A stretch of 64,000 nt of DNA from a virus (Duplodnaviria > Heunggongvirae > Uroviricota > Caudoviricetes), in the IMG/VR virus record IMGVR_UViG_2778260994_000001; one strand, written 5' to 3'. The notes beneath the pieces were generated by a model that saw nothing but the letters and a program-made list of their open reading frames with translations, was not told the origin of the DNA and searched no databases. The translations under genes were made by a program, and so were the position numbers. Shown one piece after another: positions 1 to 41,510 of the stretch (positions are counted from its first letter, which is position 1; each line of letters begins with the position of its first letter).

Positions 1-1484
1 TATTCATTAAGCCATGCCAGAGCTTCATCAACCTGCGCTTCGTCTTCGACGCTAAGCACTTCATCCTGGGGAACATAATCCGCCAGCATAGCGAAACAAT
101 ATGTATCCCAATGGTCTGGTGAGTGCAGGTTGAGTTTTTTCTTCATATCCTCCTTACTCATCACCTTCCATTGACCTGCGGAGTTAATCCCTACAGGGAT
201 TTTCGACGCTTCCTCAATAGTTTCATTACCCTTATCCAGTCTCATACGACCAGATTTTACGGCCTCTGCGGCTTGAACGTTGGCATAAGCACGTTTATCA
301 AAGTACAGGCTCTTATCTTCACGGCTATGCATCTTTTTACCCCAGCGTATACGCTGTACGGTAATACCATAATACTCGTACATCAGATCCGCCGTTGCTT
401 TACCCAAGCCATCGCCGTCTATCGCTATGGTGATATTTGGGAATCGCTCAGGATTGCATTCTGCGAAAATTTTGGCGGCAAGCTGCGTTTCTGTAACGTC
501 TGTGTATTCCAGCATTCGATAGTTGATTACACGGCGTTTATTTCGCTGGCCGGACACCATCATGATATTGATAACGGACTTATCCCGTCCCGTACCACCA
601 GCAACGTCCACACATGCAAGCCAGCCCCATCCTTTGGCAATCTTGACTTTCCGCCGCGTTGCACGTTCAACCTCATCACGTCCAAGAAGGAAGCCATCCT
701 GTGATTTAGGGAATAGGCCGCGTACCTTAATCATGTACATAGGGTTATCACGCCCGCCGTACTCCGCCAGCTTCATTTTGATAAATGCTGGCGTTACCAG
801 CGGTGATTCCTCACTGTTAAGCGTGATCGCCGTATAAACGCCATCAGGGTTACCAGGACGCTTGGCCAGTTTATGGTGTGTATCGTAGAAATAGCCGCTT
901 GGGCGTGTAGGCTGTGACAGTAATAAGATGCGGTTATCCTGTCCGGTAAGAGCACCGGTGATGATACCGAAAGCTCTATCACTGACACCGGAGGCTTCAT
1001 CGATAATATACAGAAGATGATCTGCGTGTTCACCGGCGAGAGCTTCTTCACTTCCCAGACGAAAGCCCTTCGGTACTACAGTCCATACACCTTTACCAGT
1101 AACCTCATAGAAAGCGGTTTCTGTCAGAACAAAATAATCAGCAAGCCATGGGAAACGGCTGGTGGCAGTAGCCCAGTTTATCTTGATGTACTTGAATATA
1201 CCGGTCATTACCTGCTGAATTTTGTTCGCAACGATAATGGCGCGGGCACCGGGATACATGATTATGAACAACATGATCATGATAGAAGTCATGTCTGATT
1301 TCCCGGTACCGTGACCAGACGAAACAGATGTCTTGCTACCCTGTTCCTGCACAGACTCAATAATCAGATCCTGCTGCCAGGTAGGTGTTTTGCCGAACAA
1401 AACATCAGCGGCAGCAATCCAGTCATAACGATATAGCGCCACCAGCTCGCGCCAACGTGGATCCGTTACGCAACTTCTGGCCAT
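1..1484 (-). CDS. pacB: Terminase large subunit PacB-like, C-terminus truncated by window edge
   Basis: Reverse translation from ATG at 1484 gives [14 protein letters not shown]... with Walker A (GHGTGKS) and Walker B ([11 protein letters not shown]); start overlaps pacA stop (TAATG). Confidence 0.85.
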
Positions 1485-15331: not shown

Positions 15332-15360
15332 ATTTTCAGCTCCTGTGATTGATTGGATAC

Positions 15361-15390
15361 ATGCCGCGCCTTGCGGCATGTTTTTATTTT
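15361..15390 (+). terminator. Intrinsic terminator-like hairpin (plus-strand sense)
   Basis: ATGCCGC-GCCTT-GCGGCAT followed by GTTTTTATTTT. Confidence 0.4.
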
Positions 15391-15413: not shown

Positions 15414-15430
15414 AGATTTATTAGAGCAAT
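15414..15430 (-). promoter_or_regulatory. C1-operator-like 17-mer (ATTGCTCTAATAAATCT, 16/17)
   Basis: Minus-strand match to ATTGCTCTAATAAATTT abutting the stop of the 15430-15936 gene. Confidence 0.5.
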
Positions 15431-15936: not shown

Positions 15937-16009
15937 ATGCCCTCCTCATTGGACGAAAAAAATGCTGGTGGGACGCACTCCACCAGCATTAAAAGTGACA
16001 CTGTAACTA

Positions 16010-17272
16010 TCAGCGAACGTAAATAGTGCCGCCGTTCTCTTTTTCCCATGCATCGCTACGTGCATAGCAAACATCGAGAAGTCTTCTTGCCGCTGTTTCC
16101 TCTAAACCCAATTCGACAACCAACTGCTCATGACGGCGGGTAACCACATCAAACAGGGTATGCAGCCCTTTATTGGCCAGTTCATCAATGAATTCCGGTT
16201 CGAACGGTAGCTCTGCATCTGCCAACATAACCTCTTGCGCCCACTCGACACGGCGGACCAGTTCCGGGCGGCGGCTTTCCATCTCTTTACAGATCATTTC
16301 ATGGAAGAACTCTACCCAACCTTCCGGCTGGAACTCGCGGAAAATGGCCAACGGCTGGAAGTTTGGCATCAACCATTCGTTGATACGTATATCAATGGCA
16401 TAGCCCATGTCGCAGCAGAACTGATAAGCAAAGTCCAGCTTAGAAACGATATAAGGACGCTCGTTATTGAACTCTTTAGGCGATGAGATCCCATAAGCCA
16501 GGAGGCGCGGGAAGAATGAGATTTGCCCTAACGTCGGATGGAGTTTGCTTGCAGGGAAACGGCGCTCAGTAATGCCATACATTTCCTTCTTGAGCGTCGC
16601 AAATTTGGCGTTTTCATTAACCAGCTCGGTAACCTCTGCTTTTTTATTAGCAAATGCCACGCGCGCCTCGCTTGCATCTTTAATAGCCTTTTTGAGCTGT
16701 TGGTTAAGGTCGACAATCTGCTTACGCAGTTCCTGTCGCTCGCTTTTGGCTTTGTTATAGCGTTTCTCAAGGTTAAAAGGATCAAGTTTCATGATCTCTT
16801 TATATTGAGATTTTAGAGTTGAAATCTGTGAGTTCCGCAGCACAACCATCGCGGTCATTTCATTGAGTTTTGTTTCCAGCTCAATGCTTATACGTTCGGC
16901 ATTATCAGCACGCTGGTTGGCGTCATGCGTCGCATCTTCGATCGCGTCCTGTTGCTGGCGTTTCAAATGTTCAATTTCCAGCTGAAGCTCTTCAATTTCT
17001 TTACCCTTCAGACCGAGATCCAACTGCATATTTTCAGCTGCATCTACCAGGGAGTTATGGCTATCAGCTTCTGCGTTATAAACATCAATAAGCTGTGCGT
17101 GAAGCATCTCCGCTGACTGAACCGCATTATCAAAAAAACGCGCTGTGAGGTCATCACAACTAACGCGGCGTTGCGCGGCTCGGATGTTCTGGATAATGGC
17201 CGGGATACCGGCATTCAGGACATCAGGGATAGAAACATTTTCGATTGATTGGTTTTGTGCTGAAGTGCTCAT
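16010..17272 (-). CDS. Hypothetical protein (420 aa) with long N-terminal coiled coil
   Basis: About 200 aa of heptad-rich charged sequence then a globular C-terminal domain; no catalytic motif recognised. Confidence 0.65.
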   Translation of the reverse strand: MSTSAQNQSIENVSIPDVLNAGIPAIIQNIRAAQRRVSCDDLTARFFDNAVQSAEMLHAQLIDVYNAEADSHNSLVDAAENMQLDLGLKGKEIEELQLEIEHLKRQQQDAIEDATHDANQRADNAERISIELETKLNEMTAMVVLRNSQISTLKSQYKEIMKLDPFNLEKRYNKAKSERQELRKQIVDLNQQLKKAIKDASEARVAFANKKAEVTELVNENAKFATLKKEMYGITERRFPASKLHPTLGQISFFPRLLAYGISSPKEFNNERPYIVSKLDFAYQFCCDMGYAIDIRINEWLMPNFQPLAIFREFQPEGWVEFFHEMICKEMESRRPELVRRVEWAQEVMLADAELPFEPEFIDELANKGLHTLFDVVTRRHEQLVVELGLEETAARRLLDVCYARSDAWEKENGGTIYVR

Positions 17273-17273
17273 T

Positions 17274-17492
17274 TCAAAGTTCCGTATTAGCTTGTGCTTC
17301 GGTCATTTTTCCTAAGTATGAAGGTGGAAGGACTACGCAATTTGTATCCAGTCCCTCACCTATGGCAGCCTGTAAAATTCTGGCTAAGGTGAGTCTCTTG
17401 TTGCGATACCTGGTGATGACATGCCTGATACCGCCGGTCGGCGTAACAAAGGCGATCAGCCAGTAGTGATATTTCCGTCGGAATGGCCACAT
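17274..17492 (-). CDS. Hypothetical small protein (72 aa)
   Basis: ORF only. Confidence 0.45.
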   Translation of the reverse strand: MWPFRRKYHYWLIAFVTPTGGIRHVITRYRNKRLTLARILQAAIGEGLDTNCVVLPPSYLGKMTEAQANTEL

Positions 17493-17506
17493 AGTGCACC
17501 TTATAG

Positions 17507-17523
17507 ATTGCTCTAATAAAAAA
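17507..17523 (+). promoter_or_regulatory. C1-operator-like 17-mer (ATTGCTCTAATAAAAAA, 14/17)
   Basis: Plus-strand match; first of a convergent pair flanking a palindrome. Confidence 0.4.
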
Positions 17524-17547
17524 CGTGATGAGTGTACATCACGTTTT
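17520..17547. terminator. Bidirectional intrinsic terminator (11-bp perfect palindrome with A-run and T-run flanks)
   Basis: AAAACGTGATG-agtgta-CATCACGTTTT. Confidence 0.6.
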
Positions 17548-17555
17548 AAAAATAT

Positions 17556-17572
17556 GGAATTATTAGAGCAAT
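17556..17572 (-). promoter_or_regulatory. C1-operator-like 17-mer (ATTGCTCTAATAATTCC, 14/17)
   Basis: Minus-strand match; second of the convergent pair. Confidence 0.4.
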
Positions 17573-17573
17573 A

Positions 17574-18275
17574 TTATTCTGATTCTCGCTCAAAAAACGA
17601 GCTAATGAGGGGAAGCCAATCCTCTGACACTTCGCGAGGCCGCGGTTTGCCGTGGAAAAAGATTATTCGGCAGTCCTTTGGTAATGCCCCATTCCCCCTG
17701 GAGTAACGCGCGCTCGCATATTTTGAACCAGGTTCCACAACATCGGCCTTGTAACTTACAAACCATCCTGGATACAGATCCTGAAATGCTGGTGTATCAT
17801 CGCCCATAACCTTCCGTAAGAACCCCTGATCACCCCAGCACTCAGTAGTGACACAACGAGCAATCCAACCTTCCGGATCTTGCCAGAATGAACTCCAGAT
17901 ATGTGCTTTTACACTATTTGGTATCCACAGGGCACCGCTACCACGATATTGTGGATGGTAAAAATCCCTAAGCATGGTGAAGCAGGTTGGTGGATTCTCA
18001 AGGATTGGGCGTATATCACCGGCAATAACCGTGTCCAAATCCAGATAGAACAGATCATCGGTTATATCCGGTCGGAACAACTCGATTTTCGCCCACCAGC
18101 CACGGCACTTTTGCCACTGGTTGATCAATGGGACAACTTTGACGCCAGGTACATGTAAACGCTTCAGGTCTGTCAGGCAAATAATTTCATAGCCTTTTGG
18201 CAGTTGATTAACCAGCCACTGCACATCGGAAGCGTTATAGTCACCACCAGAGCGAAGAACTAAAGCAATCTTCAT
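17574..18275 (-). CDS. Putative nucleotide-sugar transferase-like protein (233 aa)
   Basis: [11 protein letters not shown] DxD-type motif; translationally coupled to ppp (ATGA overlap); fold assignment tentative. Confidence 0.5.
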
Positions 18276-18964
18276 GCTGCACCATCACCTTTCACTTTCA
18301 TCAATGTCAGGTTTCCGCAAAATACGGCACCAGTGTCGATATACTGCTGATTCCAGAATGTCTTCGGGCTTTTCACCGGAGTGTGACCAAAGATAAAACG
18401 ATCTGCGCCCGAAATTTCGCCACCAATATCATCCATCGAATCACTGATACGCTCGCGCGCCCAGACAACGTTGAAAAGCGGCACCTCCTTACCGAATTGG
18501 TATTCATTATCCGGATAGTCGGCATGGGCTATAACGATAGTTTCTTGCCCGGTGTTCAACTCAATGATATAGGGCAGACGCTTTACCAGCTCCACCAGCG
18601 CCCTGGCTAATATTTCCTGATCAGTGTCCAGCATGAAGAACCATTGTCCGCCATTCATTAGCCAGTTATTCACGTTGCCATCAGGACTTAACGCATCAAT
18701 CATCAGCCGCTCATGGTTCCCCATCACTGCCCTGAACCAGGGCATCTGCAATAGTTCCAGACATTCGACATTTTCAGTACCGCGATCGATAAGGTCGCCG
18801 ACCGATATCAGTAAATCCTGCGCCGGGTCAAAATCCACACGATGGAGTTCGGACATCAGTCTGGTGTAGCAACCATGCAGATCACCAACAACCCAGATAT
18901 TCCTGTATTTGGTACCGTCGATACGGTGATAAATTGTTGGTGCCATCATGTATTCTTCAGCCAT
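18272..18964 (-). CDS. ppp: Ser/Thr protein phosphatase (lambda-PPase / PrpA-like metallophosphoesterase)
   Basis: GDLHG, GDLIDRG, GNHE motifs; long colinear similarity to lambda phosphatase as recalled. Confidence 0.9.
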
Positions 18965-31346: not shown

Positions 31347-31729
31347 CTCCCCGTTCCCTAATACACAGACGGGGACACTCTGCGGTCGATTTTTTGACGG
31401 GGGACGACTCATACCCCGTGGCGTCTGGCTTCTTAGGCCGCTACCATCATCAGATCATCGTTTGCATTTACTTTAATGGTCAGTTTCTAAAACGCCGCAA
31501 AGTCGCTAACCATGACGAAAACCCTGAAAAAAACGCCCACCCGAAGATGGGCAAACTGGAAGCTCGTAACGCACTTCGGTGTTGCCACTTAGGCGTATGG
31601 TCAACCTGGCAACTCGGCGTCATGAGGGGGAAGGAGTCACTACCCCGCCATACTTGCCGCCGCGCCTGTCGCGGCTAACAGCTAAATCGCTCTATAAATC
31701 ACGATTCATTGAGGCGATATTACACTAAT

Positions 31730-31746
31730 AAATTTATTAGAGCAAT
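31730..31746 (-). promoter_or_regulatory. Perfect C1-operator 17-mer (ATTGCTCTAATAAATTT) overlapping the dmt stop codon
   Basis: 17/17 match on the minus strand; positioned to control leftward transcription into the leader/tRNA/ban region. Confidence 0.6.
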
Positions 31747-41413: not shown

Positions 41414-41510
41414 ACTTTCGCCATTCAAATTTCACTATTAACTGACTGTTTTTAAAGTAAATTGCTCTAAAATTTCAAGGTGAAATCGCCACGGTTTCAC
41501 CTTGGATTTT
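41414..41510. other. parS-like centromere: heptamer ATTTCAC and hexamer TCGCCA boxes around an AT-rich core
   Basis: TCGCCA at 41418 and 41485; ATTTCAC at 41428; inverted TGAAAT at 41481; TTTCAC at 41495. Confidence 0.7.

Follow-up and report, generated by a model that had tools for sequence, protein, structure and literature searches.

The C1 repressor of phage P1 binds an asymmetric 17-bp consensus, ATTGCTCTAATAAATTT. In brief, 22 operators are scattered over the P1 genome, and Lxc (Bof) is the corepressor of C1 (PMC8546580). The operators considered here, OpmgRa and OpmgRb, were catalogued decades ago, and both the P1 and the P7 reference record carry them as annotated features. In the P1 record (AF234172), OpmgRb is labelled 'monovalent C1-controlled operator', the entry for OpmgRa reads 'controls expression of pmgR and pmgS', and a predicted sigma-70 promoter, PpmgR, is placed between the two. 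The orthologous sites of P7 are annotated as Op(sht[b]) and Op(sht[a]) (AF503408). The P1 sites are the former Op86b and Op86a, names that imply an earlier mapping of binding sites. Neither Op86 nor OpmgR is mentioned in the accessible literature, from which the P1 genome paper (Lobocka 2004) was excluded.

Other C1 operators of P1 resemble this pair in part. OpmgT/Op88 (15414-15430 in the DNA analysed here) is also located at the junction of two short minus-strand operons, and it has the same module as OpmgRa, ATTGCTCTAATAA-N6-ATTTTTAAAAC, with TTGCTC inside the operator as the -35 and TAAAAC as the -10 after 17 nt. It differs in standing alone, as a monovalent operator that lacks an inverted partner. 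In the hairpin near it (15359-15381) the T-run is on the other strand, and this hairpin is found past the promoters, not over them. The bivalent C1 operators (for example Oc1ab/Op99ab; 31719-31746) likewise place two inverted C1 17-mers on one promoter region. There the 17-mers overlap as one imperfect palindrome, whereas OpmgRa and OpmgRb are each annotated as monovalent, are 49 bp apart from centre to centre, and have the predicted promoter and a hairpin between them.

The pmgQ-pmgR junction and its repeats

We analysed a window of 64,000 nucleotides, by which we mean the whole stretch of viral DNA at its full length. The window is a phage-plasmid of the P1 type. The region matches P1, P7, RCS47, SJ46 and other Punavirus records at 98-99% identity, and over 701 bp it is 100% identical to plasmid pO111_2 of E. 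coli O111:H- 11128. The operator pair has the same position (pmgQ/hdmD to pmgR/shtA), the same orientation and the same 17-mers as OpmgRa/OpmgRb of P1 and Op(sht[a])/Op(sht[b]) of P7, and the surrounding DNA is 98.3-98.4% identical to theirs. Over 124 nt around the junction there are 2 differences from P1: the spacer between OpmgRb and the Shine-Dalgarno sequence reads CTAT (CTAC in P1), and the 3' end of pmgQ reads CTCG (CTCA in P1). From this correspondence, the two sites are the catalogued Op86a and Op86b in another P1-type replicon. The earlier note had called them "operator-like"; they coincide with annotated C1 operators of P1 and P7, and finding them was a rediscovery.

We predict that C1 binds this copy of the operators as well. 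A search for c1 inside the window found none; the window begins at the 3' end of pacB, which is next to the position of c1 in P1. Plasmid pO111_2, identical at the site, encodes a 'phage repressor protein C1', but at the window start the two are not collinear.

All genes at the junction are encoded on the minus strand, and the plus-strand ORFs found here are antisense artefacts (Table 1). Upstream of the element, pmgQ is the final gene of the pmgN-pmgO-pmgP-ppp-pmgQ operon (the 'ppp' operon), with its stop codon at 17574-17576. According to the P1 annotation, this operon is preceded by PpmgN with the C1 operator Oppp/Op83 and, further upstream, by the late promoter LPpmgL. The short pmgR-pmgS operon downstream ends in a strong sense-strand terminator-like hairpin at 15990-15961. 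The pmgR gene is essential and its deletion results in unjoined heads and tails (PMC9024508). A role of pmgR in head-tail joining is also given elsewhere, as is the dispensability of the ppp operon genes (PMC10695390).

Table 1. Genes and signals at the pmgQ-pmgR junction, in window coordinates
Feature	Coordinates	Strand	Basis and remarks
ppp	18964-18272	-	ORF list
pmgQ, 233 aa, glycosyltransferase in RefSeq	17574..18275	-	ORF list, P1/P7 annotation
OpmgRa (former Op86a), ATTGCTCTAATAATTCC	17556..17572	-	P1 protein_bind; P7 Op(sht[a])
PpmgR predicted -10, TAAAAC	17543..17548	-	P1 annotation (prediction); 17 nt after -35
Putative core terminator hairpin, CGUGAUG-UACACU-CAUCACG, 7 bp, -8.5 kcal/mol	17524..17543	-	folding, repeat search, covariation
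U-tract UUUUUU, directly 3' of core stem	17518..17523	-	sequence; also positions 12-17 of OpmgRb on the other strand
OpmgRb (former Op86b), ATTGCTCTAATAAAAAA	17507..17523	+ (inverted orientation)	P1 protein_bind; P7 Op(sht[b])
pmgR Shine-Dalgarno AAGGTG (17502-17497) and ATG (17492-17490)	17490..17502	-	sequence, P1 pmgR CDS
pmgR (72 aa) and pmgS (420 aa), short operon downstream of element	16010..17492	-	ORF list, P1 annotation

The earlier note described two opposed sites bracketing a perfect 11-bp palindrome with A-run and T-run flanks, and placed them between the end of the ppp operon and the next minus-strand gene. Both parts of this description are borne out. The element lies between the pmgQ stop codon at 17574 and the pmgR start at 17492, and a repeat search recovered both repeats with fully complementary arms. 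The outer inverted repeat consists of ATTGCTCTAATAA (17507-17519) and TTATTAGAGCAAT (17560-17572), which are 13 nt long, 100% complementary and 40 nt apart. The inner one consists of AAAACGTGATG (17520-17530) and CATCACGTTTT (17537-17547), with 11-nt arms that are likewise 100% complementary and enclose a loop of 6 nt, AGTGTA in the plus-strand reading. The 11-bp palindrome is composed of a 7-bp core of mixed sequence, CGTGATG/CATCACG, and four A-T pairs contributed by the A and T runs.

The operators are clearly distinguished from background sequence. OpmgRa and OpmgRb each match the C1 consensus at 14 of 17 positions and have a perfect 13-nt core. Five exact copies of the 13-mer core are found in the window (chance expectation about 0.002 in 128 kb). 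When up to 2 mismatches are allowed there are 14 matches, compared with 2.1 +/- 1.6 in shuffled sequences, and none of 100 shuffles reached 14. A search of the window with the 17-mer gave 4 matches where 0.43 were expected. The whole 66-bp element is a near-perfect long inverted repeat with a sense RNA fold of -26.4 kcal/mol, and the 101-nt region folds much better than its shuffles on the minus strand (z = -5.3) as well as on the plus strand (z = -4.4). An Rfam search of 16900-18300 at E <= 1 gave no match.

Hairpin and predicted promoter between the operators

The RNA of the minus strand reads AAAA-CGUGAUG-UACACU-CAUCACG-UUUUUU-AUUAGAGCAAU, and the hairpin begins 31 nt past the stop codon of pmgQ, on the same strand. 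Four A-U pairs lengthen the core stem to 11 bp (17520-17547; -12.9 kcal/mol). The tail that follows the sense core stem is UUUUUUAUU, which gives a terminator score d of +10.7. Here d is a d'Aubenton-Carafa-type score. On the plus strand the core and extended stems are nearly as stable as in the sense RNA (-8.0 and -12.4 kcal/mol), and the tail is UUUU followed by AAAAAUAU (U4 then A5), with d = -20.7. We consider the hairpin a likely intrinsic terminator on the coding (minus) strand only. The terminator proposed in the earlier note is supported for the minus strand, with its U6 tail and positive score, and not for the plus strand.

A stock terminator scan omits this hairpin, as its maximal 11-bp stem uses up four of the six Ts. 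Because of this technical miss, we wrote a scan of our own and calibrated it on shuffled sequences. Applied to both strands of the whole window, the rule gave 8 hits, compared with 0.56 per dinucleotide shuffle (25 shuffles). Five of the eight, including the pmgQ-pmgR hairpin, are found at most 40 nt past the stop codon of an ORF on the same strand that is 100 aa or longer. At the score of this hairpin, 0.36 terminator-like hits are expected per 128 kb of shuffled sequence, which scales to about 2e-4 for the 80-nt spacer and the one strand concerned.

Like canonical Rho-independent terminators of enterobacteria and their phages, the structure is a stem-loop followed by a U-run, located 31 nt past a stop codon and on the coding strand, and its score is within the range of the other gene-end hairpins of the window. 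It is unlike them in its short stem, and in that its U- and A-tracts double as operator tail and predicted -10. As a terminator it would be only moderate, with four G-C pairs among the seven of the stem and a value of d just above the threshold. A map of predicted Rho-independent terminators exists for the P1 genome (PMC8201110). No terminator is marked at the junction in the P1 and P7 records; as none is marked anywhere in the approximately 20 kb of the P1 record inspected, this absence is uninformative. The accessible literature (P1 genome paper excluded) yielded neither Term-seq nor in vitro termination data for P1, and neither transcription-start nor footprint data for this junction.

The predicted promoter PpmgR is interwoven with these features. 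Its -35, TTGCTC, is formed by positions 2-7 of OpmgRa (17571-17566), and its -10 coincides with the A-tract and the first stem base of the 5' arm of the hairpin. Since PpmgR is annotated with its -35 inside OpmgRa, the main annotated role of the sites is promoter repression. The reading in the earlier note, operators and a terminator, had overlooked this annotated promoter between the operators.

As a sigma-70 promoter, TTGCTC-N17-TAAAAC has 7 of 12 consensus matches, its -10 is without the conserved final T, and a consensus promoter scan returned nothing at PpmgR at its thresholds. In some lineages the -10 differs: TGAAAC occurs in P1-clade contigs and TGAAGC in Cronobacter phage JK004, and TAAAGC is a further variant. 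The key second A is thus replaced by G in some of them. Because the -10 is weak and variable, the promoter is uncertain, and so is the logic of transcripts that 'escape' the terminator, as described below. In favour of the promoter, OpmgT/Op88 has the identical module, and several other operators of the window have a hexamer starting with TA exactly 17 nt after TTGCTC. OpmgRb has no promoter-like hexamer at the spacing typical of operators.

We note that the hairpin loop itself contains a conceivable alternative -10, TACACT (TATCAT in a diverged clade); both are of the form TAnnnT, and there is no credible -35 at 17 nt. We also considered a late, Lpa-dependent P1 promoter and rejected it. The hairpin and loop do not match the annotated 9-bp -22 boxes (such as AAGTTACTT, ATGTGACTT or TAGTCATTT), there is no -10 at the right distance from the palindrome, and the diverged clade does not keep the sequence.

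Conservation of the junction and alternative readings

An IMG/VR pattern scan, together with PmgR-profile scans of metagenomes and IMG/VR, gave 255 loci with 92 junction haplotypes. The profile scans returned mostly sequences that were 96-100% identical, and one further member of a diverged clade, L182. A PmgR search of genome contigs gave just two near-identical loci. The 82 P1-clade haplotypes were selected either through PmgR or through the search pattern.

The layout of the junction is constant. Of 22 distinct variants, 20 have an inter-operator arrangement of 64 nt, those of the diverged clade among them, and the two 65-nt variants have a seventh T or a fifth A. Among the 82 P1-clade haplotypes, the first 11 nt of OpmgRa have no segregating site, and OpmgRb has 2 in 13 nt, a bin that includes the two outer Ts of the U-tract. 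The four Ts nearest the stem (17520-17523) do not segregate in these haplotypes, and T7 variants of the U-tract occur. By comparison, all 4 sites of the 4-nt spacer before the Shine-Dalgarno sequence segregate, as do 18 of 32 at the 3' end of pmgQ. The operators are thus under purifying selection relative to the flanking non-coding DNA, with near-invariant cores next to spacers saturated with variants. In the 3' stem arm, 6 of 7 positions carry rare variants, some of which break pairs, and the constraint on the stem is, on these counts, weaker than that on the operators.

The diverged clade comprises Cronobacter phage JK004 and the loci L182, L074/L091 and L060, with PmgR proteins that are 75-81% identical. 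It keeps both operators, their spacing and the TTTTTT run, while the loop and the adjacent spacer have diverged freely. Its stem is CATGGTG/CACCATG compared with CGTGATG/CATCACG, so that both partners have been exchanged in two pairs, one from G-C to A-U and the other from A-U to G-C. It should be noted that this covariation comes from one diverged clade, in which each of the two compensatory changes represents a single evolutionary event. Across all variants, 97% of cells in the inner helix are paired, compared with 39-54% for slid registers. Pairing of the outer helix never varies, and was selected by the search pattern.

One-sided changes differ between the strands. Six pairs of the inner stem carry changes of the G.U type. 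Of the single changes, about 10 transition events keep the pairing as G.U in the sense RNA and 4 do so in the antisense RNA only; stability is lost less in sense than in antisense in 13 variants and more in 6. This bias toward sense wobble pairing is no more than suggestive (binomial ~0.09). JK004 and L182 have CGCCATG as their 3' arm, so that the sense RNA forms a U.G pair and the antisense RNA has a C.A mismatch. The plus-strand version of JK004 has no T-run and loses one pair, with d = -75.

These observations bear on whether the palindrome stops polymerase from either side, including antisense transcription from the side of pmgR, in a bidirectional version of the terminator of the earlier note. 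The perfect palindrome, flanked by an A-run and a T-run, has the look of such a bidirectional terminator, the plus-strand fold is nearly equal to that of the sense strand, and the AAAA/TTTT extension is retained in the clade of L074 and L060. We nevertheless consider it unlikely, and do not retain that version. The plus-strand tail is poor, with a score far below that of the sense strand, the antisense version of JK004 has a mismatch and no T-run, and the one-sided changes favour pairing in the sense RNA. Moreover, there are no converging plus-strand genes, and the P1 and P7 annotations show neither a gene nor a promoter that would enter the site on the plus strand.

The palindrome may instead act in the DNA, as a site for a dimeric protein, or as a cruciform or bend that aids cooperativity or looping between C1-bound operators. 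C1-mediated DNA looping at the c1 operators is said to have been described by Heinzel et al. in 1994. The constant operator spacing, kept despite differing spacer and loop sequences, would fit such a role and is the one observation that bears on the repressor looping raised in the earlier note. The long inverted repeat formed by the whole 66 bp would fit a DNA-level role as well. The spacing is equally explained, however, by promoter spacing and hairpin length, and 49 bp corresponds to about 4.7 helical turns, which would put the sites out of phase and be very short for a loop. In the diverged clade the two half-sites have changed in concert, as the recognition sequence of a protein would rarely do, and variants such as the fixed CGCCATG arm break the symmetry of the DNA while they keep G.U pairing in the RNA. 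A role at the DNA level therefore seems to us quite improbable. Yet less credence goes to an element of RNA processing or stability, in which a target of RNase III, or a stem-loop protecting a 3' or 5' end, would uncouple the fates of the pmgQ and pmgR mRNAs. In readthrough RNA the 13 bp of the paired operators could stack on the 11 bp of the inner stem to form a 24-bp helix with a 12-nt bulge, the sense fold is stable, the pmgR Shine-Dalgarno sequence follows immediately 3' of the structure, and an hfq transcriptome preprint has pmgQ/R and pmgS/pap shifting in different directions. The outer helix, however, follows entirely from the operators repeating a single motif in inverted orientation, so that its pairing is no independent evidence, a hairpin directly followed by U6 is the signature of termination, and the Rfam search was negative. 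Least credible of all, and in our view highly improbable, is that the palindrome arose by chance or survives as a neutral, functionless relic, such as an old inverted duplication of an operator cassette might leave behind, and that only the operators matter. The rare pair-breaking stem variants in natural contigs and the many low-frequency segregating sites of the 3' stem arm point in that direction. Against it are the low number of terminator-like hits expected by chance, given above, and the fact that compensatory changes preserved the hairpin even as the neighbouring spacer and the loop diverged.

A probable compact junction of overlapping signals

We suggest that the pmgQ-pmgR operon junction probably packs four overlapping signals into shared bases: two C1 operators, the promoter PpmgR and a sense-strand terminator. 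The U-tract of the putative terminator is the 3' variable tail of OpmgRb, and the A-tract before the stem is the predicted -10. The element may thus be a compact stop-and-restart junction. In the lysogen, C1 together with its corepressor Lxc/Bof would occupy OpmgRa and occlude the -35 of PpmgR. C1 bound to OpmgRb, just downstream of the predicted start (approximately +13 to +30), would block the early transcribed region. The terminator would halt transcripts from the pmgN-ppp-pmgQ operon, which is driven by PpmgN/Oppp and LPpmgL, and pmgR-pmgS would then be expressed mainly from their own weak, C1-controlled sigma-70 promoter. If this promoter is real, transcription would start at about 17535-17540, inside the hairpin loop. 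RNA started there would lack the 5' arm of the hairpin and would therefore escape termination.

Going further, one may speculate that C1 occupancy sets the fate of polymerases that arrive from the ppp operon. Because the U-tract is also the tail of OpmgRb and OpmgRa is located just upstream of the hairpin, C1 could in principle influence an incoming polymerase. Such a repressor-tuned junction of terminator and promoter, which C1 might stabilise by binding cooperatively over the constant 49-bp distance, would act as a roadblock or enhance termination in the lysogen and allow partial readthrough after induction, while RNA started at the promoter, without the 5' arm, would escape. We regard this extension of the stop-and-restart reading as doubtful.

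The finding matters little beyond the biology of P1, and what it describes is ordinary regulation at a gene junction. What our comparison adds to the known operators is the covariation that supports a terminator on the sense strand, and the apparent overlap of operator, -10 and U-tract signals. The reading of the junction becomes cleaner: a one-way terminator would close the ppp operon, and a C1-controlled promoter would be nested in that terminator. This may be useful for the re-annotation of P1-like phage-plasmids. It may also be of use in the engineering of P1, where pmgR is essential and its upstream neighbours are dispensable, and in reading polarity in CRISPRi or transposon screens over the region.

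C1 operators and the reused module

OpmgT (Op88) and OpmgRa (Op86a), the latter being one of the two C1 operators at the pmgQ/pmgR junction, have an extended module in common, TTGCTC-N17-TAAAAC, in which the predicted -35 hexamer lies inside the operator and the predicted -10 hexamer beyond it. Its presence at both sites suggests that an operator-promoter cassette has been reused or duplicated.

Coordinates of operator-like sites, hairpins and the pacB end in the window (d, d'Aubenton-Carafa-type terminator score)
Feature	Position	Strand	Sequence or score
pacB 3' end	1-277		89% identical to P1
Hairpin, pmgT 5' UTR	15359-15381	T-run on plus	CATGCCGC..GCGGCATG; d about +34
OpmgT (Op88)	15414-15430	minus	ATTGCTCTAATAA-N6-ATTTTTAAAAC
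Hairpin after pmgS	15961-15990	minus	11-bp stem, TTTTTTT; d about +31
OpmgRa (Op86a)	17556-17572	minus	ATTGCTCTAATAA-N6-ATTTTTAAAAC
Degenerate operator	~20273-20289		
Overlapping operator cores	31719-31746	plus; minus	ATTACACTAATAA; ATTGCTCTAATAA
Operator-like site with hairpin	41461-41510	plus	ATTGCTCTAAAAT; CAAGGTGAAA..TTTCACCTTG, then GATTTT

The two overlapping, inverted cores form an imperfect palindrome, predicted to be a C1 operator of the 'bivalent' type. The plus-strand operator-like site is directly followed on its 3' side by a hairpin with a 10-bp stem, and is the second instance within the window of a C1-type site adjoining a hairpin. The position orthologous to P1 Oppp/Op83 holds no more than a degenerate operator, which matches about 12 of the 17 consensus positions when counted by eye; a search with the 13-mer core at up to two mismatches did not recover it.

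Hairpins flanking pmgT and pmgS

The strong terminator-like hairpin on the sense strand follows the pmgS stop (16010) and precedes the pap start (15936), a position in which it would mark the end of the pmgR-pmgS operon; neither the P1 nor the P7 record annotates it. Another, G+C-rich hairpin is found downstream of the OpmgT/Op88 promoters, within the 5' UTR of pmgT and ahead of the start of the gene. Its T-run is on the plus strand despite pmgT being encoded on the minus strand, and none of the plus-strand ORFs of 100 aa or more has its end upstream of the hairpin. This hairpin may act as a stop for antisense transcription or be a 5' UTR structure.

The c1 region and C1 specificity

Since the window starts at the 3' end of pacB, where identity to P1 is only 89%, the repressor gene c1 is located just outside it. 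In pO111_2, the plasmid of E. coli O111:H- 11128 that is identical at the pmgQ/pmgR junction, IS1203 and an ant gene adjoin c1, and collinearity with the window start is absent. The window therefore derives from another P1-like element than pO111_2.

PmgR of the diverged P1-like clade (Cronobacter phage JK004, L074/L091, L060 and L182) is 75-81% identical. The exact P1 C1 operator core is kept at the pmgQ/pmgR junction of this clade, which implies that its C1 would have the same DNA specificity as P1 C1.
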